Source of the DNA: an uncultured Candidatus Saccharibacteria bacterium
Lineage (GTDB): Bacteria; Patescibacteriota; Minisyncoccia; Phycocordibacterales; Zambryskibacteraceae
Assembly (NCBI GenBank): GCA_964357635.1
Contig: CAYHLZ010000001.1
Span: 44,917-108,916 of the forward strand
DNA length: 64,000 nucleotides
Direction: 5' to 3'
The notes beneath the pieces are model-generated. The model ran no database searches. It was not told where the DNA came from and saw only the letters and a list, made by a program, of their open reading frames with translations. Numbering within the stretch: position 1 is the stretch's first letter; every line of letters starts with the position of its first letter. Below, piece by piece: positions 27,984-62,900 of this stretch. Made by a program: the position numbers and the translations under genes.

Positions 27984-28987
27984 AGTTAGAGTTTTGTTTG
28001 TTCTGGATTTTTCTTTCTGCTCTTTACGAGAAATACAATACCGGTAATAACCACTACCAGTCCGAGGAGTTGTCCTCCGGGGCTATCGTCGTATCCACCA
28101 TAAACAACCATAAACGCTCCAAACAATATTGCCAAAATTGAATACGCCATTTTTCTTTTATTCATATGAAGATTATACCGTTTATACAAAAGAAAACCGC
28201 CCTTTATCCCGGGGCGGCATCGGTCGACTCACTCACGTCACGAGTGATCAGTACTGCAAACTCCTCTACTTCTTGAGGGGGAATCCCCAGAGTTGAAGCA
28301 GCACGATCCAACTGTTCCTTGAAAGGGCCGTTGAGGAGTAGCCCGTCTCTTCGTAGTTGTTGCTTGAGAAGAAGATAGCCGATCTCACACTTACGCTCTT
28401 TATTCATTGCAGTCCTCGAGTGTAACGTTGGTCCAATACATATATACCAGCTACTCGTGATAAATGCAAAATTATTATTACTTCGTGTAGTACTAAAATA
28501 AAGAAAGAAGCTACTGGCTCCGCGACAGTTTTTATAAAAGGAAGACCGCCCGAAGGAGGTCTTCCTTGGGCGGTCACGTGTGGCGGAAATGTCCTTTTTC
28601 TTTGTACTTTCTTGCTTGTAGAAGAGCTTCTTCCAGTGGTAAGGATGGAACGAAATCAATCACTGTTTCATCCAACCCACATGTTGAAACTAGAACAATC
28701 TGAGAACAGAGGGTATAGGACGCCATGTGAATCTTGACGGCCATGGTAACACCCCCAGCTTGTTTCTTATCGAAAATTTCACGCAGTAGAGCGTTTATCA
28801 GTTCCATCAACATCTCCCATTGAGTTTGGACTTCTAGAGGACGGAAAGGTTCTAATCGCCATGTTTATCTATCTCTCAGCTTATGTCAAGTACGGGCTCC
28901 GCGACCGGTTTTATAAAAATAAACCGCTGTGCCTGATGGACACAACGGTTTTTTAACAGATACGAAGGCCTTACTCACATATCCTTC

Positions 28988-29170
28988 CTAGCGCCTCGGT
29001 CGGGACTGATCACACTTTTCAAGATATTGAGCAAGAGCCTCTCTTGTAATATCTGCTAGTGACTTCTTCTCGCGGAAAGCTATGTTCCGCAACAGGTCAT
29101 GTGTTCGTGACTCTATCGCCACAAACAGTTTAACGGGACATATCAACTTTGTCTTGTTGGCCACAGCCAC
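28988..29170 (-). CDS. Putative ribbon-helix-helix (CopG/Arc-like) DNA-binding protein
   Basis: 60 aa; C-terminal SLADITREALAQYLEK resembles RHH helix pair. Confidence 0.35.
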   Translation of the reverse strand: MAVANKTKLICPVKLFVAIESRTHDLLRNIAFREKKSLADITREALAQYLEKCDQSRPRR

Positions 29171-29397
29171 TCTCCCCTAGTTTATAGATCGTTGCCCGCG
29201 CCACAATAACAAGAAATTATAAGCCTTGTCAATTTGTCTCCGCGACAGGGATCTCTCGGCTTACAGCCGCAGTACACCTTTCGTATTTTCTCATCCTTCA
29301 ACAAATTCAGGACTCGAAAATATATTCAAGGTCTTCTCGCCCTGGACGCAAGCAGGTTCACTGCTTGCTTCGCGTCGCAAAATTGCAAACAATTTTG

Positions 29398-29470
29398 CTC
29401 CGCGACCAGGGCTCGAACCTGGGACATCCTCCTTAACAGGGAGGCGCTCTACCAACTGAGCTATCGCGGA
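29398..29470 (-). tRNA. tRNA-Asn (anticodon GTT)
   Basis: Reverse complement TCCGCGATAGCTCAGTTGGTAGAGCGCCTCCCTGTTAAGGAGGATGTCCCAGGTTCGAGCCCTGGTCGCGGAG; 7-bp acceptor stem, D-loop GG, anticodon loop CUGUUAA, T-loop GGTTCGAGCCC. No encoded CCA. Confidence 0.85.
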
Positions 29471-42954: not shown

Positions 42955-43635
42955 ATGAATACAGAAAAGAAACCACAATGCATTGGCATAATCTTAGACG
43001 GTAATCGTCGTTGGGCGAAAAAGAACGGACTGCCCTCGCTTGAAGGACACCGACGCGGGGTGGAGAAGTTGAAAGAGACTGCGCGCCAGGTTCGCGACCG
43101 AGGGATAAAGCATTTAGCAGTTTTTGCTTTTTCAACCGAGAATTGGAATCGGAGTAAAGAGGAGGTGGGCTACCTCTTGAAACTTTTCCGTTCCGCAATG
43201 GATGAATTTTTCGAAGAACTCTCAAAAGAAAATATCAGAGTGAAGTTTGCGGGAGAGCGTGAACGCCTTGACCCCGATACGCAAGCTGCCATGACTCGCA
43301 TGGAAGAGGCAAGTCAAGAAAATACTGGACTAACCTTGTGGGTATGTTTCTCCTACGGCGGGCGTGCCGAGATTGTCGCAGCGGCAAATAATGCCAAAAA
43401 AGAAGGCGAGATTACAGAAGAGTCACTCAATAAAAATCTATGGACCAGAGATATGCCTGACCCAGATATTATTATTCGCACAGGTGGGGAGAAACGTCTC
43501 TCTGGCTTCCTCACTTGGCAGAGTATCTACTCAGAACTTTTCTTAATTAACGAATACTGGCCCGACTTTAGCGAAAAAATCTTGGACTCTGTCCTATCAG
43601 AATTCAGCGAACGCACGAGAAGAATGGGGAAATAA
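42955..43635 (+). CDS. uppS: Undecaprenyl diphosphate synthase (cis-prenyltransferase)
   Basis: IGIILDGNRRWAKK, AFSTENWNR, RTGGEKRLSGF. Confidence 0.9.
   Translation: MNTEKKPQCIGIILDGNRRWAKKNGLPSLEGHRRGVEKLKETARQVRDRGIKHLAVFAFSTENWNRSKEEVGYLLKLFRSAMDEFFEELSKENIRVKFAGERERLDPDTQAAMTRMEEASQENTGLTLWVCFSYGGRAEIVAAANNAKKEGEITEESLNKNLWTRDMPDPDIIIRTGGEKRLSGFLTWQSIYSELFLINEYWPDFSEKILDSVLSEFSERTRRMGK
43566..43635 (+). repeat. Direct repeat copy 1: native 3' end of uppS
   Basis: Aligns at ~85% identity with 44830..44899; both in frame, encoding FSEKILDSV..FSERTRRMGK*. Confidence 0.8.
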
Positions 43636-43678
43636 AAACTGGCCGCCCCTGTTGGGAAGCGGCCAGTAAACGAACACA

Positions 43679-44416
43679 TCAAATCATCTTGAAGGACTGG
43701 TCCTTGGCACCGGTCTTTTCGGCAAGCAACCTCGCCCTTTCCCGAAGTTGGTTTACTTCGGTTTTATTCTTGCTGATACGGTCAAGGAATCGAGCCGAGT
43801 GCCAGAAGATACGTGCTGCTTGCCGAGGCTCTTCCTTCTCGGCTTCCTTGGCGGCATTAATTGCTGCCTGCACCTCCCTTATCACTAAGTTCCGGCGTCT
43901 ACACCTGCCACTAAACCTGCTACCTTCGTGCCAGTAAATATCTGCTCGCCCGACGTGGAGGTGTCCCCGCGTGTGGGCTTCCACCAAGCGCTTGTTGAGC
44001 GCCTCGGTAATACACCTCTTCGCCTCGGCATACTTGAAGTGACTGCGCAGGACGCTCTGGCGAATGTTGCACATGCCTGCTGTCATCTTTCCGTAGCCGC
44101 CCATGAGCTTAACAGCGCGATTTGAGCAGGGAAGCGCGCGTGAGTAGCAAACCACGGCAAGTGGAAGCCATGTGAAGCACCACGCTACGGTTCTCGCCGG
44201 GGCACGCCATCCCGATTGAAACGCTGCCTTGAGTTGCGCAAGCGCCGTGCGGTAAATTGAGTAGTAGGTACTCGAGAGCGCGGAGTAACCCTTCGCCCGC
44301 ACCCACCTGTCCGTTGAACTGAGGTTCAACTCGTTGTCCTTCCGTGATTTGGAAAAGAGCTCAAGCTTGGCGCGAAACGATGTCTCGCTCCAGCTCAGGT
44401 CGCTGATTGATGTCAT
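43679..44416 (-). CDS. Hypothetical protein (islet cargo)
   Basis: 245-aa ORF, GC-rich, no motif. Confidence 0.35.
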   Translation of the reverse strand: MTSISDLSWSETSFRAKLELFSKSRKDNELNLSSTDRWVRAKGYSALSSTYYSIYRTALAQLKAAFQSGWRAPARTVAWCFTWLPLAVVCYSRALPCSNRAVKLMGGYGKMTAGMCNIRQSVLRSHFKYAEAKRCITEALNKRLVEAHTRGHLHVGRADIYWHEGSRFSGRCRRRNLVIREVQAAINAAKEAEKEEPRQAARIFWHSARFLDRISKNKTEVNQLRERARLLAEKTGAKDQSFKMI

Positions 44417-44534
44417 CGCAATCTCCCTTTTTGGGGTGTTTCTAAGCCTATCCCTATAATAACATATATTTTGCCTTTATGCAAGTAAAAGAGCTTTGGG
44501 CATACACCCAAAGCTCTCTGGCTTCGAAACAAGG

Positions 44535-44768
44535 TCAGTGTTCGAGTGGGGCGCAGTCATACGAGTCCCAAGAACCATCGTATGTTCCGCGTACCGAGAT
44601 GGCTCGGCCGTCTTTCGTTCTGCACTCGGCTTCGAACTCAACATCCTGTCCGTTCTGGGACATTTTGAGCTCGAGAAGCTCACCAAGCTCGCCCCTGTTT
44701 GCTGCGGCAAGGGCGCCGGCGACAAACTTCTTCTCATCTTCAGTGAAAGGTTTAATAGGTGTCAACAT
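44535..44768 (-). CDS. Hypothetical small protein (islet cargo)
   Basis: 77-aa ORF, GC-rich. Confidence 0.3.
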   Translation of the reverse strand: MLTPIKPFTEDEKKFVAGALAAANRGELGELLELKMSQNGQDVEFEAECRTKDGRAISVRGTYDGSWDSYDCAPLEH

Positions 44769-44829
44769 GAGCCCTCCTTCATTTCTGGGTGCACTGTAAC
44801 TGTTTGCAGAAAAAAGTCAATTTTTACAG

Positions 44830-44899
44830 GCTTCAGCGAAAAAATACTTGACTCTGTTATCTACGGATTCAGCGAACGCACTAGAAGAATGGGGAAGTA
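44830..44899 (+). repeat. Direct repeat copy 2: diverged duplicate of uppS 3' end (encodes ...FSEKILDSVIYGFSERTRRMGK*)
   Basis: See copy 1. Substitutions are mostly synonymous/conservative, suggesting an element-borne copy from a related genome. Confidence 0.8.
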
Positions 44900-45019
44900 A
44901 TTTGTGGACTACAGTGTAAAATCTTTTTACTAGATAGGGGTATTGACTGAGTCCTTTTTTTGTTGTTGATTGTGTGTAGTGTTGTTGCAACGCGCAGGCA
45001 TGAGTGATATTCTATAGAA

Positions 45020-45370
45020 ATGGAAAAAAATAAAGAATTAGGACAGCTCCTAAAGGAGCTGCGCGAGAAAGCTTTTTACGGAATGGGGCTAAGACGGGTG
45101 GCCGATAAAGTTGGTATTGATTATGCTCACATTTTCCGAATTGAAGTTGGTCAATATATACCTTCAGACGAAAACCTTATTAAACTACTCGATGCTTATA
45201 AGGCAAATCATCAGGAGAAAATGACTGCTTTTAAGTTAGCGCGCCTTACTCCTGGTTTCCATAAAGTTATTGAGCAGGCACGAAAGTACTTGGGAAGTGA
45301 TAAAGCTCTTGCTGGAGCTTTTTTCCGTAAAGAAAAAGGAAATAAGAGAAGCGAAAAAGATGAAAAATAA
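45020..45370 (+). CDS. XRE-family HTH transcriptional regulator
   Basis: HTH GMGLRRVADKVGIDYAHIFRIEVGQYIPS; paired with ImmA/IrrE gene 3 nt downstream. Confidence 0.7.
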   Translation: MEKNKELGQLLKELREKAFYGMGLRRVADKVGIDYAHIFRIEVGQYIPSDENLIKLLDAYKANHQEKMTAFKLARLTPGFHKVIEQARKYLGSDKALAGAFFRKEKGNKRSEKDEK

Positions 45371-45372
45371 AT

Positions 45373-46071
45373 ATGAGGCAATCCGAACCAAATGAATACT
45401 TTCCTTTTTTGACCAACGAGATGGTCGAGGAACAGGCACGAACAGACTTTCTGAAGTATCAGAGAGCAACAGGTCGAGAACTAACCTTTCCTATTTATCC
45501 AGATGAAATCCTTCAAGGGTTGTGGGGTGTTACTGTGGAGTATTTAGATGAGGTTTTTTCATCTGACAATGAGGAGGTACTAGCCTGTTTTATTCCTGAG
45601 AAGCAAGTTGTTTATCTAAACAACTCAATGCGGGGATTAGAGGGTCGTGTTTCTTTCAGTCTTGCTCATGAAGCTGGACACGTGTCTCTTCACAGTTTTC
45701 TCGCAAAAGTTGGATATAAGGAGGCGTTGTGTCGTGGGAAACTATCCGTGGGTGACAAGGAGAAAATGATAGAGAGACAAGCTGATAGGTATGCTTCGGC
45801 GCTTCTTATGCCGAAGAATGTTTTGCTCGTTAAGTTAGGACAACTTGAGCATACTCCAACTGGGGTTTTTGACTTAACCATTTACGGTAAAAAGCTCAGT
45901 GATTTTTTTGGAGTTTCTCATCAAGCACTTGAAAGAAGGCTGGCTGATCTTGGTATCAGTTCCATTGGTGGTTACTATGGTGTTAAAACCAAGAAAGTGT
46001 CAGAAAAGTTCTTTGAAGATATGGAAGCAGAGAGGACAACTTGGTCAGCCCACAAAAAAGGTCGAGTATAA
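45373..46071 (+). CDS. ImmA/IrrE-family metallopeptidase (DUF955)
   Basis: HEAGHVSLH zinc motif and downstream ADRYASALLMPKNVL typical of ImmA/IrrE. Confidence 0.75.
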   Translation: MRQSEPNEYFPFLTNEMVEEQARTDFLKYQRATGRELTFPIYPDEILQGLWGVTVEYLDEVFSSDNEEVLACFIPEKQVVYLNNSMRGLEGRVSFSLAHEAGHVSLHSFLAKVGYKEALCRGKLSVGDKEKMIERQADRYASALLMPKNVLLVKLGQLEHTPTGVFDLTIYGKKLSDFFGVSHQALERRLADLGISSIGGYYGVKTKKVSEKFFEDMEAERTTWSAHKKGRV

Positions 46072-46763: not shown

Positions 46764-46839
46764 TGGTGGACCCTACCGGATTCGAACCGGTGACCTCCTC
46801 ATTGCAAATGAGGCGCTCTACCAACTAAGCTAAGGGCCC
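46764..46839 (-). tRNA. tRNA-Ala (anticodon TGC) with encoded CCA
   Basis: Reverse complement GGGCCCTTAGCTTAGTTGGTAGAGCGCCTCATTTGCAATGAGGAGGTCACCGGTTCGAATCCGGTAGGGTCCACCA; G3:U70 pair, canonical D- and T-loops. Confidence 0.85.
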
Positions 46840-46921
46840 TTCGATGGACTCAGGACAAGCCCAATAAGGCAAAAGTATAGTGGACAAAGACCGAAAAATC
46901 AATTAAAAATAATCAATAAAA

Positions 46922-46995
46922 GGGCCTATAGTATAGTAGTAACACGCGTCCATGGCATGGACGAGTCGCGAGTGCGATTCTCGCTAGGTCCACCA
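46922..46995 (+). tRNA. Atypical tRNA-like element (Ala-like acceptor with G3:U70, anticodon-loop GGC, degenerate D- and T-loops; possible pseudo-tRNA)
   Basis: GGGCCTA...TAGGTCCACCA acceptor with G3:U70; anticodon arm CGTCC-ATGGCAT-GGACG; T-arm GCGAG-TGCGATT-CTCGC lacks TTC; D-arm lacks GG. CCA abuts the ATG of the next ORF. Confidence 0.35.
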
Positions 46996-47758: not shown

Positions 47759-48670
47759 ATGCAAAAAGTTCTTAGTATTCAGAGGATCCTCCTCGCTCTT
47801 GGAATCTTGGTATTCCTCGGAGCCGCTATCGTCGGTGCCACAGGCGCCTTCTTCAGCGACACGGAGACCTCAACAGGTAACACGTTTGCCGCAGGTGAAC
47901 TCGATCTCACGATTGACAACTCAAGCTACGGCTTCGATTACAATGACCCAAACAACCGCGAACCAATAGGCAATTGGGGTTTAAACGCGTCTAACTCATG
48001 GACTCTTCGAAATCTCAATGAATGTGGTCCGCTGGATCAGAATGGTGCCACGACTACTGGCCCATGTCTCTTCTTCAACTTCGACGACTTGAAGCCGGGA
48101 GATTACGGTGAGGATACCATCTCGCTCCATGTGCAGAACGACGCCTACGCATGTATGGCGCTTAAACTCACAGCAACACCTGAAAATGATGTAAATGAGG
48201 CAGAAGCTGAGGGTCTTCCTGTAGATACAACGCTCGGAAGTGATGAGGGTGAACTTCAGAATTATCTCAACTTCGCCTTCTGGCGTGACGACGGAGACAA
48301 TGTCTTCGAATGTACCAGTGTCGGAGAGGACCAAACAACATGTCTCGCCACGGAACAAATTCTCTTCCAAGATTCAGCAACGAATCTTAGCCAAGTTCCA
48401 AACACAATTGCGGACCCCGGGAACGGACAGGTGTTGAAAGCCGACGATACGTACTATGTCGGCAAGTCATGGTGCTTCGGCAAAATGAGTCAAAATCCAG
48501 TTCAGAACAACGGCAATGCCGCTCCTACTGAAACTACCACAGGATTCACCTGCGACGGTGTAGGCAATCACAATGATGCCCAGACAGATGGTATTGTTGT
48601 GAACGTTGAATTCTCTGCGGTACAGGCAAGGAACAATGCAGGCTTCCTTTGCTCACCGCTACTACAATAA
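47759..48670 (+). CDS. TasA/CalY (camelysin)-like secreted protein with SipW-cognate signal region, paralogue 1
   Basis: Signal peptide then ATGAFFSDTETSTGNTFAAGELDLTIDN (compare Bacillus CalY ...FAFFSDKEVSNNTFAAGTLDL). Shared paralogue block FDDLKPGDYGEDTISLHVQNDAYACM. C-terminal FSAVQARNN. Confidence 0.65.
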   Translation: MQKVLSIQRILLALGILVFLGAAIVGATGAFFSDTETSTGNTFAAGELDLTIDNSSYGFDYNDPNNREPIGNWGLNASNSWTLRNLNECGPLDQNGATTTGPCLFFNFDDLKPGDYGEDTISLHVQNDAYACMALKLTATPENDVNEAEAEGLPVDTTLGSDEGELQNYLNFAFWRDDGDNVFECTSVGEDQTTCLATEQILFQDSATNLSQVPNTIADPGNGQVLKADDTYYVGKSWCFGKMSQNPVQNNGNAAPTETTTGFTCDGVGNHNDAQTDGIVVNVEFSAVQARNNAGFLCSPLLQ

Positions 48671-48831
48671 GTTTATCTCTAGCCCTTCGACAAGCTCAGG
48701 GTAAACCAACCCTGACTCGCGAATAGCCGAATCCGCCCCGATACAGCATCGGAGCGGAGGGGCTGTTCATGAGAACAGCGAGCACAATCGGATTAACAGC
48801 GAATCAGACATTATTAAAATTAAAAATATTT

Positions 48832-50064
48832 ATGTTAAGCATATTCTCTAACGTGCGCGTACTCTTCGGCTCGCTCATCATAGTGGGCGCCGTGGCGGCT
48901 CTCGCGACGGGACTCACTGGCGCATTTTTCTCCGACACAGAAACGTCAACCAACAACCGCTTCACCGCAGGCGCCATAGACCTGAAGGTTGATAACGAAT
49001 CTTGGTACAACGGAAATGAGTGTGTGCAGAGCGAAGAAGGTTGGGTCTGGCAGGGTCCTAACCCTTACCCAGTTTCCGGTACGCCATGCACGACCTCATT
49101 CCTACCTTCTGACCTTGACGCTGGCTACCTCTTTTTTGATTTCCTAGACCTTAAACCAGATGACGAAGGTGAAGACACCATCTCTCTTCATGTTCAAAAC
49201 GATGCATGGGCATGTATGGACCTGACACTCACATCAAATGACGACAACTCAACATCAGAGCCAGAGAGTTTGGTAGACCAAGCAGAAGATCCGCTTAACT
49301 TCTGGGACGGCGAGCTTGCGCAAAATCTTCAGTTCCTATGGTGGGCTGACGATGGCGACAATGTTCACGAGGTGGGAGAGAAGGTGCTCTCTGACGGTGT
49401 TGAAACTCTCTACAACCTTGCCACCTCTACTGGCGCCTTCTCGATAGTGCTCGCTGATTCTACGCAGAACGCTTGGGGCCTCCCCGCGGGCACCCCACTT
49501 CCTGCAAACGAAACTGTTTATATTGCCAAAGCATGGTGTCTAGGCACTCTTACCGATGATCCTGTACCAGACAATGGCGGCGTAAACCCCGGAGTTGACC
49601 CTGGCGTAAACTGTGATGGCACACTTCTTAATAACCTCACACAAACAGATGGAGTGGAGCTGACACTTGCCTTCAGCGCAGTACAGGCTAGAAACAACGA
49701 ATCTTTCCGCTGTAACCCGCCAGATACCAGAACCGCAACACTTACCGTCAATAAAGCAACCCTAACCTCAACCGCAGGTATTGAAGTTGGCGACTTTACT
49801 CTCCACATTGTTGGTCCGAATGGAGATCAAGTTGTCTCGGATGAAATTCCAACCGCCGGTCTGCCCGCTGGGTCGTACACGACATATGAAGTTGTCACGG
49901 GTGATGTTTTAGGAAAGACGTTTATTACAACGTTCAGTGGTGTTTGTTCAAATGTTGGAAACAGCATGACATCATTACCATTCGCAGTGAATCCTAATGA
50001 CAACGTTACCTGCGTTATTCTAAACGATGAGGTAGGCGATTTCATTCCTCCTACCTTCAACTAG
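48832..50064 (+). CDS. TasA/CalY-like secreted protein, paralogue 2
   Basis: LTGAFFSDTETSTNNRFTAGAIDLKVDN; FLDLKPDDEGEDTISLHVQNDAWACMDL; FSAVQARNN. Start taken at internal ATG giving a typical signal peptide (ORF track starts 48769). Confidence 0.65.
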   Translation: MLSIFSNVRVLFGSLIIVGAVAALATGLTGAFFSDTETSTNNRFTAGAIDLKVDNESWYNGNECVQSEEGWVWQGPNPYPVSGTPCTTSFLPSDLDAGYLFFDFLDLKPDDEGEDTISLHVQNDAWACMDLTLTSNDDNSTSEPESLVDQAEDPLNFWDGELAQNLQFLWWADDGDNVHEVGEKVLSDGVETLYNLATSTGAFSIVLADSTQNAWGLPAGTPLPANETVYIAKAWCLGTLTDDPVPDNGGVNPGVDPGVNCDGTLLNNLTQTDGVELTLAFSAVQARNNESFRCNPPDTRTATLTVNKATLTSTAGIEVGDFTLHIVGPNGDQVVSDEIPTAGLPAGSYTTYEVVTGDVLGKTFITTFSGVCSNVGNSMTSLPFAVNPNDNVTCVILNDEVGDFIPPTFN

Positions 50065-50123
50065 TTTGCCTTCGTGCTTGTGAGCAGTTTGTTCTTCTTG
50101 GTTTCTGATGACCAGCATAAAAT

Positions 50124-51200
50124 ATGAAAACCCTATCCACGAACCTAGCGATGAGATTAGCGATTATCTTCGCGGTCTCTATGGTGGCTGGCACGGCGTT
50201 TTATGCGCGCGGATTGGAGCCGGGCACTACCTTCGCGCCTGGCAACTTTGACTTCAAGATTGATAGCGAAGCAAGTTACAACGGTAACTTTGTGCCCTCC
50301 GGCACCTGGAGTCTCAAGAATTTGGTACCCGGCGTTGACAGGTTCTTTAACTTCGACGACATCAAACCCGGCGACCAAGGGGAGAACACCATCTCACTCC
50401 ACGCCAACAAAAACGCGTGGATGTGTCTTGACTTCATAAATCTTCAAGAAAACGAGAACGGTATAAACGAACCAGAAAGTGAGCTTGATATCACAGGAAG
50501 TGGTGGGGAACTTGCCGACGGCATGGAATTCTTCTCTTGGAATGACGATGGAGACAACATTTTTGAGCTGGGAGAAAAACCTATCTTTGGAACCTCAACA
50601 CAATCTGCTTCAATCGTTCTTGCTTCCACGACCTATGCCGTGGCTGATGCTTTGGGTGGCCAGGCATGTAAGGCAGACAAGACTTGCTACATCGGCATTT
50701 ACTGGTGTGCTGGAAATCTCGAGGTCAACTTAAATACCGCAGAGATTACTTGTGACCATACGACCCTCGGCAACGAGGCGCAGACCGACATCATGACTGT
50801 TGATGTGCGCTTCCGTGCCTATCCGTCGGAAGAGAACCCCGGGCTTCGCTGCGATGGAAAGAAGATTTCTGGTTGTAGTCCCGGCTACTGGAAGAAATCT
50901 AGCCACTTTGACGAATGGACGGCACCCTACACTCCTAACACTCTTTTCTCTTCTGTCTTTGATAACGCCTTCCCCGGCAAGAACCTGAAGCAGGTCTTGA
51001 CGATAACCGGTGGCGGTCTTAATGCCTTAGGCCGACAGACAGTCGCAGCACTTCTCAATGCGGCAAATCCTGAGGTTGGTTATGCCTACAGCGTCGCGGA
51101 GGTAATATCTATGTTTAACGCTGTCTACCCCGGTGGCGACTACGAGACGCTGAAAAACCTCTTTGAAAAACACAACACTAAGTTTTGTCCTCTGAATTAA
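50124..51200 (+). CDS. TasA/CalY-like secreted protein, paralogue 3 (more divergent)
   Basis: Signal peptide; FDDIKPGDQGENTISLHANKNAWMCLDF block shared with paralogues 1-2. N-terminal motif degenerate (TTFAPGNFDFKIDSE). Confidence 0.6.
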   Translation: MKTLSTNLAMRLAIIFAVSMVAGTAFYARGLEPGTTFAPGNFDFKIDSEASYNGNFVPSGTWSLKNLVPGVDRFFNFDDIKPGDQGENTISLHANKNAWMCLDFINLQENENGINEPESELDITGSGGELADGMEFFSWNDDGDNIFELGEKPIFGTSTQSASIVLASTTYAVADALGGQACKADKTCYIGIYWCAGNLEVNLNTAEITCDHTTLGNEAQTDIMTVDVRFRAYPSEENPGLRCDGKKISGCSPGYWKKSSHFDEWTAPYTPNTLFSSVFDNAFPGKNLKQVLTITGGGLNALGRQTVAALLNAANPEVGYAYSVAEVISMFNAVYPGGDYETLKNLFEKHNTKFCPLN

Positions 51201-51202
51201 TT

Positions 51203-51766
51203 ATGAAAACTCTGCGTAAAACATTTTACGGCCTCTTTATCCTTCTCATAGTTGGAGCAGCAGGACTCTTCCTTGCCACTCTGCTTCCCATTCCAGGGAA
51301 CGTTGAGGTAAAAATTGTGAAATCTGGTTCCATGGAGCCGACGATACCTACAGGCTCTCTCGTCTTCGTCAAACCTAAGGCAGAGTACTCGGTGGGCGAT
51401 ATTATCACCTTCGGTCAAGATACAAAATCAGAAATACCGACGACGCATAGAATAACGGAGGTTCAGGTTGGGGAGGGTGGAACAGTTTTTATGACCAAGG
51501 GTGACGCAAACGAAGAAGGTGACCCACAGCCCGTGCCAGCAAGCGAAGTTATCGGTCTAGTTTGGTTCCACGTGCCTTATGCGGGCTACATCATAGATCT
51601 TGCGAGACAGCCGTGGGGCTTCACTTTCCTTATCGGTATTCCCGCAGCACTCATCATTATGGACGAGGCCTTGCGCATCATTTCGGAGGTGAGGGAGATG
51701 CGTCGTCGAAGACGCGAGGGTACGATCGGACTTGTTAACGAAACAAACAACAATGAAATGCGTTAG
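51203..51766 (+). CDS. SipW-like (ER/archaeal-type, S26B) signal peptidase I
   Basis: N-terminal TM, then VKSGSMEPTIPTGSLVFVK (Ser box), PTTHRITEV (His box), TKGDANEEGD; C-terminal TM. Starts 3 nt after paralogue 3. Confidence 0.75.
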   Translation: MKTLRKTFYGLFILLIVGAAGLFLATLLPIPGNVEVKIVKSGSMEPTIPTGSLVFVKPKAEYSVGDIITFGQDTKSEIPTTHRITEVQVGEGGTVFMTKGDANEEGDPQPVPASEVIGLVWFHVPYAGYIIDLARQPWGFTFLIGIPAALIIMDEALRIISEVREMRRRRREGTIGLVNETNNNEMR

Positions 51767-52706
51767 ACAAAAAATTCTTGTCCGTAGGCATAAATTTGAC
51801 GACGTAGTCTTCGTACATGAAGTTGTCTCCTATATACCTGAACCCAAACTTGGAAGAGGGCGCCTTTTTACACCGAGACGCATGATCACGACGGCCTTAG
51901 CTGCCCTTTTTCTAGTCTTTATCGGAGCAAATTATGGCGAAGTGACAGATACGGGCGCCTTCTTCAGCGACACAGAAACTTCGGCGGGTAACAGGTTTGT
52001 CGCCAGTCTTCTTGACTTTGTTGCAAGTGGTGGAGCCTTGGGCAAGGTCACACCTCAAGGTCCGGCTATAGAAATACCTTTCACAGTGACTCCTGAAGCC
52101 GGCTCGGTTGTTACAAAGTATCGCATTACTATTGAAAACATTGTTGGCACCCTGTCCCTCTGTGACGCACTTTCCGTGACGGTTAAAGACGGAACGCCAT
52201 TTGCATATACAGGACCCATCGCAGGTCTTAATGGTACAGCGGAGAGCTCTGTCTCTATGGTGCTTGAAGCTTCTCTACCCTCCGACCCAGGTGTTTCGCC
52301 CGAAGACGAGTGTACCTTTGATATAGTTGCGCGTGGTTGGAACCAGCTCGTACCAGAGAACACCGGTTATCTTGATGAAGAGCGCGCACAGGTGGTAATA
52401 AACGACCCGCCAGCCGAGACGACCACTGAACCAAGTCCTTCGCCGGACTCAGGACTTCCGGCTCCTGAACTCCTTCAGGAAACTACAGTTGTTATTGAAC
52501 AACCAAGTGATGAAATCTTGCCGGAAGAAATCCCTGTAGAGAAGGAAGTCCCACAGGAGGAGGCTATAACAGAGGGATCAGTAGAGGAGAACTCTAGTAC
52601 GGAAGAGACCACGCCTGAACCTCCGCCTAGTAACGAAATTTTGCCAGAGCCAGAGGTAGTGTCTGAACCGGTCTTAGAAATGCCCCCAGAGCCAGTTGTG
52701 GAATAA
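51732..52706 (+). CDS. SipW-cognate-type secreted protein, paralogue 4, with C-terminal Pro/Glu-rich repeats
   Basis: TGAFFSDTETSAGNRFVASLLDF after a hydrophobic segment; true start probably the internal Met near 51882 (MITTALAALFLVFIG). C-terminal ~110 aa are PE/EV/EP-rich low complexity. Confidence 0.55.
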   Translation: MLTKQTTMKCVRQKILVRRHKFDDVVFVHEVVSYIPEPKLGRGRLFTPRRMITTALAALFLVFIGANYGEVTDTGAFFSDTETSAGNRFVASLLDFVASGGALGKVTPQGPAIEIPFTVTPEAGSVVTKYRITIENIVGTLSLCDALSVTVKDGTPFAYTGPIAGLNGTAESSVSMVLEASLPSDPGVSPEDECTFDIVARGWNQLVPENTGYLDEERAQVVINDPPAETTTEPSPSPDSGLPAPELLQETTVVIEQPSDEILPEEIPVEKEVPQEEAITEGSVEENSSTEETTPEPPPSNEILPEPEVVSEPVLEMPPEPVVE

Positions 52707-61244: not shown

Positions 61245-62066
61245 ATGTCCAAACTTCAGATAGGTATTGTTGGTCTGCCAAATGTTGGGAAGTCTACGCT
61301 CTTTAATGCACTTACAAAAAAATCTGTACCAGCAGAGAACTATCCCTTCTGCACCATAGACCCTTCCGTTGGTATTGTGCCTGTACCTGACGAAAGGCTA
61401 GAAAAACTTTCTAAGTTATCAAAATCTAAAAAAACTATTCCAGCGGTGGTAGAATTTGTTGATATTGCTGGACTTGTGAAGGGCGCATCGGAGGGGGAAG
61501 GGCTCGGTAACAAATTTCTTTCCCACATTCGCGAGGTGGATGCCATTATTGAAGTGGTTAGAACCTTTGAGGATTCAGACATTATCCATGTGCACGAAAA
61601 GGTTGATCCAATCTTTGACATTGAGATTATTAATATGGAACTTGAGGCAGCGGGGATAAAGAAGCCAACTCTTTATGTTTTAAATATTTCAGAGGTTTCT
61701 GGGCAGATATCGGCAGAATTCAAGTCAAAAATTCCTGGACCGTATCTAGAAGTTGACCCAATTTTCGGCACAGGGCTTGATAAACTTATCATTGAAGCCT
61801 ACAAACTTCTTGATCTAATCACTTTTCTGACTACAGGAGAAGACGAGACAAGAGCCTGGACAACTCGTCGAGGCTCTACTGCACCAGAGGCAGGCAAGTC
61901 AATACACAGTGATTTTCAAGAAAAATTTATACGCGCAGAAGTAATCCACTACGACAAACTTATGGAAGCAGGTTCCTATGCCTTGGCACGCGAGAAGGGT
62001 TGGCTCCGAACGGAGGGGAAGGAGTACATCGTCCAAGATGGTGATGTCATTGAGTTTTTAATCTGA
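61245..62066 (+). CDS. ychF: Ribosome-binding ATPase YchF (short form)
   Basis: G1 GIVGLPNVGKSTLFNAL, G3, C-terminal TGS domain ending QDGDVIEFLI; shorter than canonical. Confidence 0.85.
   Translation: MSKLQIGIVGLPNVGKSTLFNALTKKSVPAENYPFCTIDPSVGIVPVPDERLEKLSKLSKSKKTIPAVVEFVDIAGLVKGASEGEGLGNKFLSHIREVDAIIEVVRTFEDSDIIHVHEKVDPIFDIEIINMELEAAGIKKPTLYVLNISEVSGQISAEFKSKIPGPYLEVDPIFGTGLDKLIIEAYKLLDLITFLTTGEDETRAWTTRRGSTAPEAGKSIHSDFQEKFIRAEVIHYDKLMEAGSYALAREKGWLRTEGKEYIVQDGDVIEFLI
62036..62064 (+). repeat. Direct repeat A1: 3' end of ychF (AGATGGTGATGTCATTGAGTTTTTAATCT)
   Basis: 27/29 identical to 62663..62691; both encode DGDVIEFLI* in frame. Confidence 0.75.
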
Positions 62067-62494
62067 TGAAAATTATTAAACGAAAAGCGAATCTTATACC
62101 TTATCGTTTTGTAGAAAACCACTTCGAATTCCATTTATCTCATCGCTCAAAAACTGCCAAGCAGTATCCTGACAATTGGAGTTTTTGGGGAGGTGGAATA
62201 GAGGGGGATGAAACACCTGAACAGGCATTGATTCGAGAGGTTCAAGAAGAGCTTAATTGGAAACTAAATAAATTTGAATTTCTTGGAACTTATTATGATT
62301 CAATGCCAAATGAAAAATTTATTTTCTTTACCAAGGTCAGTGATGACTTTGAGAAGCAAATAGAAATCCGCGAAAGTCAGGGTGGAAGATTTTTTACAAG
62401 AGAAAATGTTGAGAAGGACGCAAAAATAATTTCCGAAGATAAAAAACCGCTTTTTGACCTAGCTGATCTTCTTACGAAGATGGTAGTGTCGTAG
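62066..62494 (+). CDS. Nudix hydrolase (cargo of ychF-adjacent islet)
   Basis: Nudix box GGGIEGDETPEQALIREVQEELNW. Confidence 0.65.
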   Translation: MKIIKRKANLIPYRFVENHFEFHLSHRSKTAKQYPDNWSFWGGGIEGDETPEQALIREVQEELNWKLNKFEFLGTYYDSMPNEKFIFFTKVSDDFEKQIEIRESQGGRFFTRENVEKDAKIISEDKKPLFDLADLLTKMVVS

Positions 62495-62504
62495 AGTTTA
62501 AGAT
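62478..62504 (+). repeat. Direct repeat B1: 3' end of Nudix gene (AGATGGTAGTGTCGTAGAGTTTAAGAT)
   Basis: Resembles 62863..62889 (first 11 nt identical, ~80% overall). Confidence 0.5.
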
Positions 62505-62519
62505 TTAGGTAAATAAATT

Positions 62520-62693
62520 ATGAAGAAAAAACAAAAAATCACTAAAAAACCAACAAGATCACTTGAAACCATCGCCCACTTCCGTTGCGGGAATTGCGGT
62601 AAATGGTGGTCTATAGGTGATGCACCAATATTAAGGAAAAAATGGTGGTGTCCATGGTGTGGAAAGATGGTGACGTTATTGAGTTTTTAATCT
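62520..62693 (+). CDS. Small zinc-ribbon protein whose last 9 codons duplicate the YchF C-terminus
   Basis: MKKKQKITKKPTRSLETIAHFRCGNCGKWWSIGDAPILRKKWWCPWCGKDGDVIEFLI*; CxxC...CxxC; 3' end equals repeat A2. Confidence 0.35.
62663..62691 (+). repeat. Direct repeat A2: second copy of ychF 3' end
   Basis: See A1. Confidence 0.75.
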
Positions 62694-62862
62694 AGGCAAT
62701 AAAAAAGGTCGCGATGTCATGGAAACGTATGTTGTCCATGACATCCGACCAGGTGAGTTGCAAGACCAGCACCATCACAGGGTAAACCTGATAGTTTGAT
62801 ATCGGCCGTAGGGTCGGGTATCTAATCCGACCTTTCGCAACTTGTCAAAGTATAACATCTAG

Positions 62863-62889
62863 AGATGGTAGTGCGATAGAGCTTAGGAT
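62863..62889 (+). repeat. Direct repeat B2: second copy of Nudix 3'-end sequence
   Basis: See B1; lies just upstream of the 62901 gene. Confidence 0.5.
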
Positions 62890-62900
62890 ATAATATAAAT

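Follow-up and report, generated by a model that had tools for sequence, protein, structure and literature searches.

Probable remnants of mobile elements that entered the 3' end of ychF again and again in a groundwater bacterium

In the 64-kb stretch of DNA analysed here (the window), ychF is followed by three small inserts bordered by copies of its own last ten codons. This islet most likely consists of the leftovers of mobile elements that entered the same spot repeatedly. Four copies of the gene end lie in series, the site is empty in the closest relative, similar copies recur at the ychF loci of other genomes, and a version of the site is carried by phages. The process is of a known kind; the lineage and the target gene are new.

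A single repeat family downstream of ychF

The host is a tiny groundwater bacterium. From the end of ychF onward there is a single family of 32-nt repeats with four direct copies (R1 to R4), each of which encodes a YchF-type C-terminus and a stop codon in register. The features of the locus are as follows.

61245..62066, + strand: ychF, short form, 273 aa, the target gene (TIGR00092, E=1e-101)
62035..62066, + strand: R1, the functional ychF end, …QDGDVIEFLI, stop TGA
62066..62494, + strand: Nudix hydrolase gene, 142 aa (PF00293, E=6e-14)
62477..62508, + strand: R2, displaced copy of the ychF end, DGSVVEFKI, stop TAG
62520..62690, + strand: zinc-ribbon protein gene, 56 aa, stop TAA at 62688-62690
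62664..62695, + strand: R3, displaced copy of the ychF end, DGDVIEFLI, stop TAG
62696..62861, + strand: X, non-coding insert with two strong hairpins
62705..62750, + strand: hairpin 1, an arm, 13-nt spacer and inverted arm (repeat search and fold)
62812..62832, + strand: hairpin 2, GGTCGG-N9-CCGACC (fold)
62862..62893, + strand: R4, relic DGSAIELRI, stop TAA
62901..63818, + strand: gene for a DUF5671 membrane protein, conserved on the downstream side of ychF (PF18920, E=1e-20)

The ychF gene is intact, as its product matches the Pfam families YchF-GTPase_C and MMR_HSR1 and the former match reaches the last residues. Upstream of the islet lie ychF, a 138-aa ORF, a response regulator and a histidine kinase. 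R1 and R3 are identical at 28/32 positions, and apart from the stop codon all changes are synonymous. The nucleotide differences between them are T-C and C-T. R2 is identical to R1 at 22/32 positions and to R4 at 24/32, which bears out an earlier observation that the motif ending the Nudix gene recurs before the next gene. The first-pass annotation had also described a 27/29 recurrence of the last 29 nt of ychF. This recurrence is real, with its true position at 62665-62693, 2 nt from the 62663-62691 originally given. The same annotation treated the two pairs as separate duplications in an interleaved A-B-A-B order. All four copies instead fall in one family, in agreement with their matrix scores, and a more fitting description is a single site present four times in two subtypes. 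A matrix trained on functional ychF ends only gives R2 28.0, R3 37.5 and R4 18.7, the highest score in 1.1 Mb of control sequence being 3.1. No inverted partner is present beside R1, R2 or R4.

Chance similarity or an assembly artefact has next to no probability as an explanation. The region is identical in the window's assembly and two others, the repeats are thus reproducible, and none of 100 shuffles gave a second match to the last 29 nt of ychF. No further 32-mer with ≤10 mismatches to any R copy occurs in the window (128 kb over both strands), and relics of this type recur in other genomes.

R4 is probably the oldest relic. Over its left 19 nt it matches without a difference the relic at the end of a Nudix gene in another locus (L161). 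On the right it finishes with …GATATAAta, similar to the native ychF end plus spacer in the closest relative (L001), and this right end contains TATAAT, 9 nt 5' of the DUF5671 ATG.

The ATG of the Nudix gene overlaps the ychF stop codon by one base (TGATG, at 62066), and its last 6 codons (KMVVS and the stop) come from R2 in the +1 frame. Nudix orthologues elsewhere terminate in TKMVVS/R/P, and an R2-type relic also lies at the 3' ends of Nudix genes in L161, L165 and L172. Hence the similarity of R2 and R4, the weaker of the two pairs in the first-pass annotation, is not chance. The Nudix gene had been regarded as cargo inserted behind ychF, which holds only in part. It is not simply a fresh arrival, as the ychF-TGATG-Nudix pair is old and its arrangement is conserved in another clade. 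Blocks of relic, Nudix gene and relic are also present away from ychF in two loci (L167, L170).

The zinc-ribbon ORF terminates inside R3, again in the +1 frame, as …CGKMVTLLSF. The residues (K)MVTLLSF and the stop are read from R3, while the core of the family stops at CPWCG. A word-indexed search for relatives was null and raised the possibility of a spurious ORF. This was rejected because a full phmmer search found 464 relatives at E≤1e-3, with homology up to about residue 49-50, and the gene is considered real. One homologue (L177) lies in an unrelated context without relics. The ORF had been listed as 58 aa with DGDVIEFLI as its tail. It is 56 aa long, and that peptide belongs to a different frame, closed by a stop at 62618-62620 until that point and not continuous with the CxxC ORF.

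Both hairpins noted previously are present in X, and a 207-nt hairpin stretch folds at z = -5.7. The rising arm of hairpin 1, AAGGTCGCGATGTCATGGA, reproduces the left half of the repeat once more, as a partial fifth copy (79%). Rfam returned nothing meaningful for X or the small hairpin inserts. X bears no similarity to Nudix or phage loci, and its derivation from a decayed Nudix copy was rejected after local DNA alignment did not exceed shuffles and tblastn was null. A further hairpin at the R1 border, ACATC…GATGT, is not conserved among other ychF genes. The idea that the hairpins are kept at other islet borders fails, since other islets have unrelated hairpins.

The ychF junction in relatives and a phage-borne site

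The empty site is found in the closest relative (L001), the YchF of which is 87% identical. Here the ychF-DUF5671 junction is uninterrupted, and the ychF stop codon is followed by 21 nt and the DUF5671 start. Synteny of ychF and DUF5671 is seen in at least 25 loci across Paceibacteria, with the gap ranging from 21 nt to ~3 kb. Among about 54 CPR-type loci there are 14 stop-ended ychF-end relics within 1.5 kb downstream of the gene, where 0.69 are expected, and about 12 of these loci bear relics. More than two copies occur only in the window. The inserts are mutually unrelated, consisting of a DUF6881 gene, a 310-nt stretch or hairpins. The starts of the relics coincide within about 2 nt in the window and four other loci (L044, L056, L167, L170), with unrelated DNA adjoining. 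Duplication lengths at ychF loci are about 15, 22, 32 and 48 nt. Several loci show the gene end followed by an inverted copy and then a direct copy, and the inverted copy of L160 has two possible pairing partners, the gene end and the relic.

No long donor tract was found in ychF, and the window's YchF resembles that of L001 right up to the end. Since, in addition, all changes between R1 and R3 are synonymous, the junction is placed at the stop codon. A literature search for ychF as an integration target gave a single match, the unrelated case of a prophage lying upstream of ychF in pneumococcus.

Tailed-phage contigs (L178-L181) with portal, terminase and replication genes carry a mimic of the ychF end, AAGATGGGGATGTTATGGAGTTTAAGATATAA. 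The mimic shares the start AAGATGG with the chromosomal relics and is flanked by non-ychF DNA upstream and phage genes downstream. It sits in a 44-bp near-palindrome (16-nt / 12-nt / 16-nt) adjoined by a strong divergent promoter. It is of the EFKI type and lies 100 nt from the contig end, whereas the ychF end of the window genome is EFLI. Viral contigs gave no match when searched for EFL-type ychF ends or for uppS ends. The site-carrying phage's own integrase is absent from its contig. A related phage has a tyrosine integrase (PF00589) at the matching place, and neither that phage's integrase nor its early genes were found in the ychF loci or the window. Comparison of the inserts with the site-carrying phage group gave chance 14-mers only, and tblastx was null. 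Among about 65 ORFs of the window, Pfam detected none that would encode an integrase, a resolvase or a transposase, and no recombinase was found in the ychF loci.

Together, the empty site, the hypervariable interval, the relics elsewhere and the phage-borne site fit the sequential insertion at the ychF 3' end that had been proposed at the outset. A theme common to the ychF, uppS and tRNA-Asn loci of the window had also been suggested. This is plausible, as the uppS end has a 70-nt duplication around a 1.2-kb G+C-rich insert and copies of the tRNA-Asn 3' end border small cassettes. The tRNA-Asn array consists of single-gene units of 160-380 nt, several with a terminal hairpin.

Proposed integration and rival explanations

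The ychF 3' end probably serves as an attachment site. The islet would then be a stack of remnants that have no integrase, comprising the Nudix gene, the zinc-ribbon gene and a hairpin scar. The chromosomal site would be the final ~30 nt of ychF, beginning at AAGATGG and closing with the stop codon, and its users would be temperate phages as well as other integrative elements of Paceibacteria. An arriving element would bring its own imitation of the ychF end, so that ychF stays intact and the earlier end is displaced downstream as a relic. Repeated integration followed by near-total loss of element DNA would leave the order ychF-R1, Nudix-R2, zinc ribbon-R3, hairpin scar X-R4 and DUF5671. The remaining genes would run into the next relic, which would supply their final codons and stop. 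The recombinase may have acted in trans or been lost. As none was found in the window, we infer the enzyme. The succession of insertions is likewise a reconstruction, as is a crossover close to the middle of the site.

Several observations sit uneasily with this attachment site. Units of 187-442 nt are very small for remnants keeping both borders. R2 is less similar to R1 than R3 is, and this lack of a steady fall with distance means that composite insertion or exchange between sites would be needed. Simple integration does not explain the relic-Nudix-relic blocks away from ychF. The lack of a recombinase in the window and ychF loci, the dissimilarity of the inserts to the phage group and the EFKI type of the phage site also count against it.

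A rather unlikely alternative requires no dedicated recombinase. DNA taken up from relatives would enter through homology-facilitated illegitimate recombination, or forks stalled at hairpins would switch template. Such routes would insert DNA with a short direct duplication, at times with inverted copies, and the relics would later serve as portable homology. The lack of a local recombinase agrees with this, as do the variable duplication lengths at ychF and the 70 nt at uppS. The order of gene end, inverted copy and direct copy is that expected from fold-back template switching, and R4 seems to combine a Nudix-end relic with a native end. The window also encodes a type IV pilus ATPase and platform protein, which may serve in DNA uptake, as such systems can. 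However, one left border is common to several unrelated inserts, the phage site with that same border is symmetric and of recombinase type, and ychF lacks a donor tract. The units could instead belong to an integron-like platform in which one R and one ORF form a mobile cassette, moving as small circles by means of a recombinase encoded elsewhere, entering next to ychF and being expressed by read-through from it. Every unit is one small gene or scar with exact R borders, the Nudix start overlaps the ychF stop, the ORFs terminate in the following R, the tRNA-Asn array has similar single-gene units, and the Nudix unit and relics are found at other places. This explanation is nonetheless doubtful, as no integrase was found beside the units, paired core sites of the attC type are missing from the R copies, the window alone of about 54 loci has more than two copies, the zinc-ribbon homologue in L177 is relic-free in its unrelated context, and circular forms have not been observed.

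It is very unlikely that the relics persist mainly for their function, with the last 30 nt of ychF also controlling the gene that follows, from its 5' side (as promoter, coupling region, or an arm of a terminator or antiterminator). A gene that arrives at this place would then retain a copy. This would explain their persistence rather than their origin and is compatible with the other readings. Most copies (R1, R2, R4, and those of L160 and L060) lie 0-25 nt 5' of a start codon, and relocated Nudix genes retain the upstream relic. The ychF end of L001 forms TGATATAAT 25 nt 5' of the DUF5671 start, R4 retains TATAAT, and the alternative pairing of the L160 inverted copy would suit such a role. 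On the other hand, no gene follows R3, a promoter scan found nothing at R2-R4, and the relics of L044, L056 and L165 are 175-260 nt or more from the next start.

Other candidates were rejected. An integron was discarded on the basis that no intI adjoins the array, no PF00589 match is present in the window and the repeats reproduce the ychF end in direct orientation. A diversity-generating retroelement was dismissed since the scanned ORFs contain no RT and the R1/R3 differences are not adenine-specific. A dif/Xer-type site was dropped on comparison by eye.

A broader and fairly unlikely generalisation is that the 3' ends of some conserved genes of these streamlined bacteria (ychF, uppS, tRNA-Asn) are landing pads for miniature single-gene cassettes with target-end imitations. 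These would be moved by recombinases encoded elsewhere, for example by phages, with relics co-opted as the C-termini and stops of the cargo. If true, this would amount to integron-like gene shuffling without an integron.

Comparison with known integration systems

To our knowledge, very little is known of gene exchange in CPR/Patescibacteria because their genomes show few recognisable mobile elements. Taken with the related loci and the mimic on phages, the islet suggests that integration in Paceibacteria has a hot spot at the ychF 3' end that is used recurrently, where small accessory genes (Nudix hydrolase, zinc-ribbon, DUF6881 protein) enter and persist. The same evidence further suggests that leftover site copies turn into coding sequence of the captured genes. 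Relics of the ychF end offer a concrete marker with which earlier integrations can be mapped and CPR phages tied to their hosts, although the underlying principle was established before in other bacteria.

In E. coli, the prophages e14 and phage 21 insert in the 3' part of icd and supply a replacement end. As in the ychF islet, the element brings a near-synonymous gene end and the displaced pseudo-end keeps its frame. These are single large prophages with an integrase and a duplication of about 165 nt, whereas the ychF islet consists of three tiny remnants in series with a duplication of 32 nt. Integron arrays resemble the islet in having small, mostly single-gene units in one orientation at a fixed site, with upstream expression. 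The islet differs from them in having no adjoining intI, in repeats that copy a gene end rather than attC hairpins, and in units whose independent movement is hypothetical. In Streptococcus thermophilus, ICESt1/ICESt3-related elements accrete at the 3' end of fda.

Tandem accretion of decayed elements at a gene 3' end is documented (PMC5704250; 10.1101/2020.12.28.424599). The tycheposons of Prochlorococcus likewise reuse one site in a streamlined genome, with partial target copies between elements, older elements pushed inward and degenerate remnants (10.1101/2020.12.28.424599). Unlike the ychF islet, they target tRNA genes, are kilobases long and encode tyrosine recombinases (10.1101/2020.12.28.424599), and only the tRNA-Asn array of the window resembles them directly. 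CIMEs, cis-mobilizable elements that move in cis after accretion with a functional element, differ from the islet in that its units are only 187-442 nt with at most one gene, its host is a CPR bacterium and its target is ychF. In addition, no integrase-bearing parent element was found in the window, and the mobility of its units is putative. In both, direct repeats of the target end surround integrase-less remnants, and in CIMEs, as proposed for the islet, newcomers enter at the gene-end site and push older ones outward, and composites can move together (PMC5704250). Like a CIME, each unit of the ychF islet is bordered by R copies and free of recombinase.

The ychF islet and its repeat family

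The source genome is of the Patescibacteria, Paceibacteria type, and the nearest ychF loci come from MAGs of such organisms. The islet behind ychF is arranged as follows.

Features of the ychF islet (R1-R4, direct 32-nt copies of the ychF end, with their ychF-frame peptides; asterisk, stop)
61245-62066: ychF, short form, 273 aa
62035-62066: R1, DGDVIEFLI*, stop TGA
62066-62494: Nudix hydrolase gene, its ATG overlapping the ychF stop (TGATG)
62477-62508: R2, DGSVVEFKI*, stop TAG
62520-62690: CxxC…CxxC (zinc-ribbon) ORF, 56 aa
62664-62695: R3, DGDVIEFLI*, stop TAG
~170 nt between the CxxC…CxxC ORF and the DUF5671 gene: non-coding DNA, including insert X (62696-62861)
62862-62893: R4, DGSAIELRI*, stop TAA
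62901-63818: DUF5671 membrane protein gene, leuS next downstream

The first-pass annotation described two interleaved duplications, of the ychF end and of the Nudix end. The repeat search instead returned one family of four direct copies, at 62035, 62477, 62664, and 62862. Identities over 32-mers running through the stop codon are highest for R1-R3 (28/32), followed by R2-R4 (24/32), R1-R2 and R2-R3 (22/32 each), R1-R4 (20/32), and R3-R4 (19/32), and no further 32-mer within 10 mismatches of any copy occurs on either strand of the window. In the ychF frame all four encode a YchF-type C-terminus with the stop in register. On a weight matrix trained on functional ychF ends from other genomes R2, R3, and R4 score 28.0, 37.5, and 18.7, against a control maximum of 3.1 (1.1 Mb of reverse strand). 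The supposed two duplications are therefore a single site in two subtypes. The ending encoded by R1 and R3, EFLI, is that of the clade to which the window belongs; R2 encodes EFKI, typical of the clade with a 365-aa ychF and a Nudix gene. R4 resembles a hybrid whose left half is of the Nudix type and whose right half is native; its left 19 nt are identical to the relic (displaced ychF end) of locus L161. The short YchF form of the window clade (61245-62066) is ~90 residues shorter than the 365-aa form of neighbouring Paceibacteria (L161, L165, L044), and its NCBIfam match is split into two stretches.

The repeats and hairpins of the earlier description are real. The islet region is identical in a Logan and an ENA assembly (0 mismatches over 3.6 kb), and the two hairpins behind R3 were found again, the fold of 62694-62900 reaching -71.9 kcal/mol (z = -5.7). 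The left half of the repeat recurs a fifth time, in part, as the rising arm of hairpin 1 (repeat family D2). The frame assignment was wrong: the zinc-ribbon ORF, said to end in DGDVIEFLI*, is offset from that peptide by one frame (+1) and terminates as …WCPWCGKMVTLLSF*.

Passengers and relics at ychF ends

Locus L001, whose YchF is 87% identical, presents an empty site in which 21 nt separate the ychF stop from the DUF5671 orthologue; two other close relatives, L002 and L081, are also without Nudix. At least 25 loci keep the ychF…DUF5671 synteny, the gap ranging from 21 nt to ~3 kb. Within 1.5 kb downstream of ychF, 14 relics with a terminal stop were found in 12 of ~54 CPR-type loci, where 0.69 are expected from the reverse-strand rate. 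The inserts at different loci show no kinship among them. They include a DUF6881 gene whose ORF takes its end from the relic, read in the +1 frame (L044, …QKMAS*), a 310-nt stretch (L056), a 94-nt perfect hairpin with a 48-nt duplication (L095, 3728-3821), and inserts of 25-90 nt at several other loci. In L095 (3728-3821) and L102 (1609-1680), related long hairpins (GCCCCGTA…CGGGG) occupy precisely the interval from ychF stop to relic. The L095 duplication encodes the same peptide except for one T/A change, the remaining differences being synonymous.

A small element just past the ychF stop recurs in six Paceibacteria loci (L160 5090-5210, L060 2095-2215, L005, L153, L151, and L159) and has no Rfam match. 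It runs from the gene end through a short loop, an inverted gene-end copy, an (A/G)AT(C/T)CTGA(G/A) motif, a small hairpin, and a direct relic with stop to the next gene. The inverted copy co-varies with its own genome's gene end; in L160 the stem is ~21-25 bp and uninterrupted, and the gene end and the relic are alternative pairing partners of the copy. Integration could have left the element as a scar, or it could serve as a terminator/antiterminator switch.

The window's Nudix ORF takes its last codons from R2, read in the +1 frame (…TKMVVS*), and its nearest orthologues terminate in TKMVVS, TKMVVR, or TKMVVP. Nudix follows the 365-aa ychF in L161, L162, L165/L166, and L172-L174 with the same one-base stop/ATG overlap (TGATG; TAATG in L162), and ends in the same relic in all of these except L162, which keeps only a short trace. 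Translated in the ychF frame, the L165 relic gives DGSAIEFKI*. In L167 and L170/L171 the gene stands behind non-ychF genes (a HIT-like gene; DsbA-VKOR) with a decayed ychF-end relic at both front and back, the front one starting GAAGAYGG 0-6 nt from the preceding gene's stop. Nudix is therefore a long-standing passenger of the ychF-end site and a secondary arrival in the window's lineage.

The 56-aa zinc-ribbon ORF is, judged by its homologues, a genuine gene. A full phmmer search of 1.84 billion representatives gave 464 matches at E<=1e-3. The relatives are 50-70 aa long and have a common hHFxCGxCxKWWSIGDAP…CPWCG followed by variable tails, and homology of the ORF to this family ends at the start of R3. 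Its KKWWCPWCG codons (AAAATGGTGGTGTCCATGG, 62639-62657) are 74% like the left half of the repeat, which is probably coincidence; they could have been a source of microhomology at the R3 junction.

A phage-borne site and other loci in the window

A degenerate ychF-end pattern matched two IMG/VR contigs, one phage, where we estimate a chance expectation of ~0.03 in the collection. The contigs encode a portal protein, large terminase, O-like replication protein, RusA-like resolvase, Sak4-like protein, and methyltransferases. The site lies ~100 nt from the contig end (…caaattcgt/AAGATGGGGATGTTATGGAGTTTAAGATATAA/caaccccatctt…), with non-ychF DNA upstream and phage early genes downstream. It has the same left border as the window (AAGATGG), forms a near-palindrome (16-nt arms, 94% complementary, 12-nt spacer), and adjoins a strong divergent promoter-like site. 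The early genes are common to related phages, one of which (L186) carries a tyrosine integrase (PF00589, E=1.5e-17) at the matching place, beside host genes; the contig of the L180 phage contains no integrase. We read the L180 site as a putative attP imitating a ychF end, one that fits EFKI-type hosts and not the window genome. Both contigs (IMGVR_UViG_3300027923_001678, L180, 1-260; 3300027913_000597) break at the same point, 100 nt past the site, inside an ORF starting MGNGAYWWVALDN… downstream of a near-consensus promoter. This ORF may be an integrase gene, and the common break may reflect a mixture of integrated and free phage forms in the sample.

A scan of every ORF end in the window found 3'-end duplications only at uppS (2/30 mismatches) and ychF (4/30). 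The last 70 nt of uppS (43566-43635) recur 1265 nt downstream at 44831-44900 with 83% identity, reading frame and stop kept (FSEKILDSVIYGFSERTRRMGK*). The 1.2-kb insert between them (43636-44830; G+C ~50% vs. ~42% nearby) opens with a hairpin; its two ORFs, of 245 and 77 aa on the minus strand, both lack a Pfam match. Behind it, at 45020-46071, are an XRE-type HTH gene and an ImmA/IrrE-like peptidase gene. Downstream of the tRNA-Asn gene (29397-29470; region 28512-29470, minus strand), copies of its 3' end (CTCCGCGAC) number at least three and lie near 29237, 28897, and 28518. These copies delimit units measuring 160-380 nt with one small ORF apiece, and several of the units close with a hairpin and T-run. 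This array is a classical integrase signature; no integrase was found near it. More single small genes (DUF1653, OmdA) lie beyond. Together, the uppS and tRNA-Asn copies support the earlier proposal of a recurrent process across the window. Elsewhere in the window, 47759-52706 holds four adjacent paralogous genes with common repeated segments (repeat families D1 and D2), G+C raised to ~49%, weak camelysin (M73) N-terminal matches in two, and a signal-peptidase-like S24 gene among them. Divergent tRNA-Ala genes (TGC and GGC) lie 82 nt apart at 46764-46995.

Proposed accretion at the ychF end and its alternatives

The earlier interpretation, nested or sequential insertions behind ychF, is partly supported. 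An integrating element would supply a new gene end and displace the old one, and repeated integration with decay would build the stack behind ychF. R1 and R3 are close to identical, both being of native type, and the unit between them, a composite Nudix-R2-zinc ribbon, is probably the latest arrival; X-R4 would be older. The hybrid look of R4, together with the centre of dyad symmetry in the phage site, may point to a crossover near GAG/TTT. The hairpins that adjoin relics at many loci could represent terminators brought in by elements and left behind as scars.

Several points stand against integrase-style accretion, namely the unusually small units, a duplication length that differs between loci, and the relic-flanked Nudix blocks away from ychF. 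Also against it, neither the ~65 window ORFs nor the ychF loci yielded a recombinase, and no insert resembles the phage group in sequence. Recombinase-free insertion, homology-facilitated or by template switching, is a serious rival, as is a true cassette platform. Relics may also persist through start-proximal signals that they carry, in line with the TATAAT retained in R4 and the TGATATAAT formed by the L001 ychF end.

We interpret the islet as att-site accretion with decayed elements, a known process, here in CPR bacteria and with ychF as the target. Its pattern agrees with a published model in three steps, in which integration is followed by decay to a remnant lacking an integrase and then by accretion at the site that contains the gene's end (PMC5704250), and with the tycheposon arrays described as 'pushing inward' (10.1101/2020.12.28.424599). 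Less ordinary features are gene tails co-opted from relics, a ychF-end mimic on a phage, and a possible cassette-like system.
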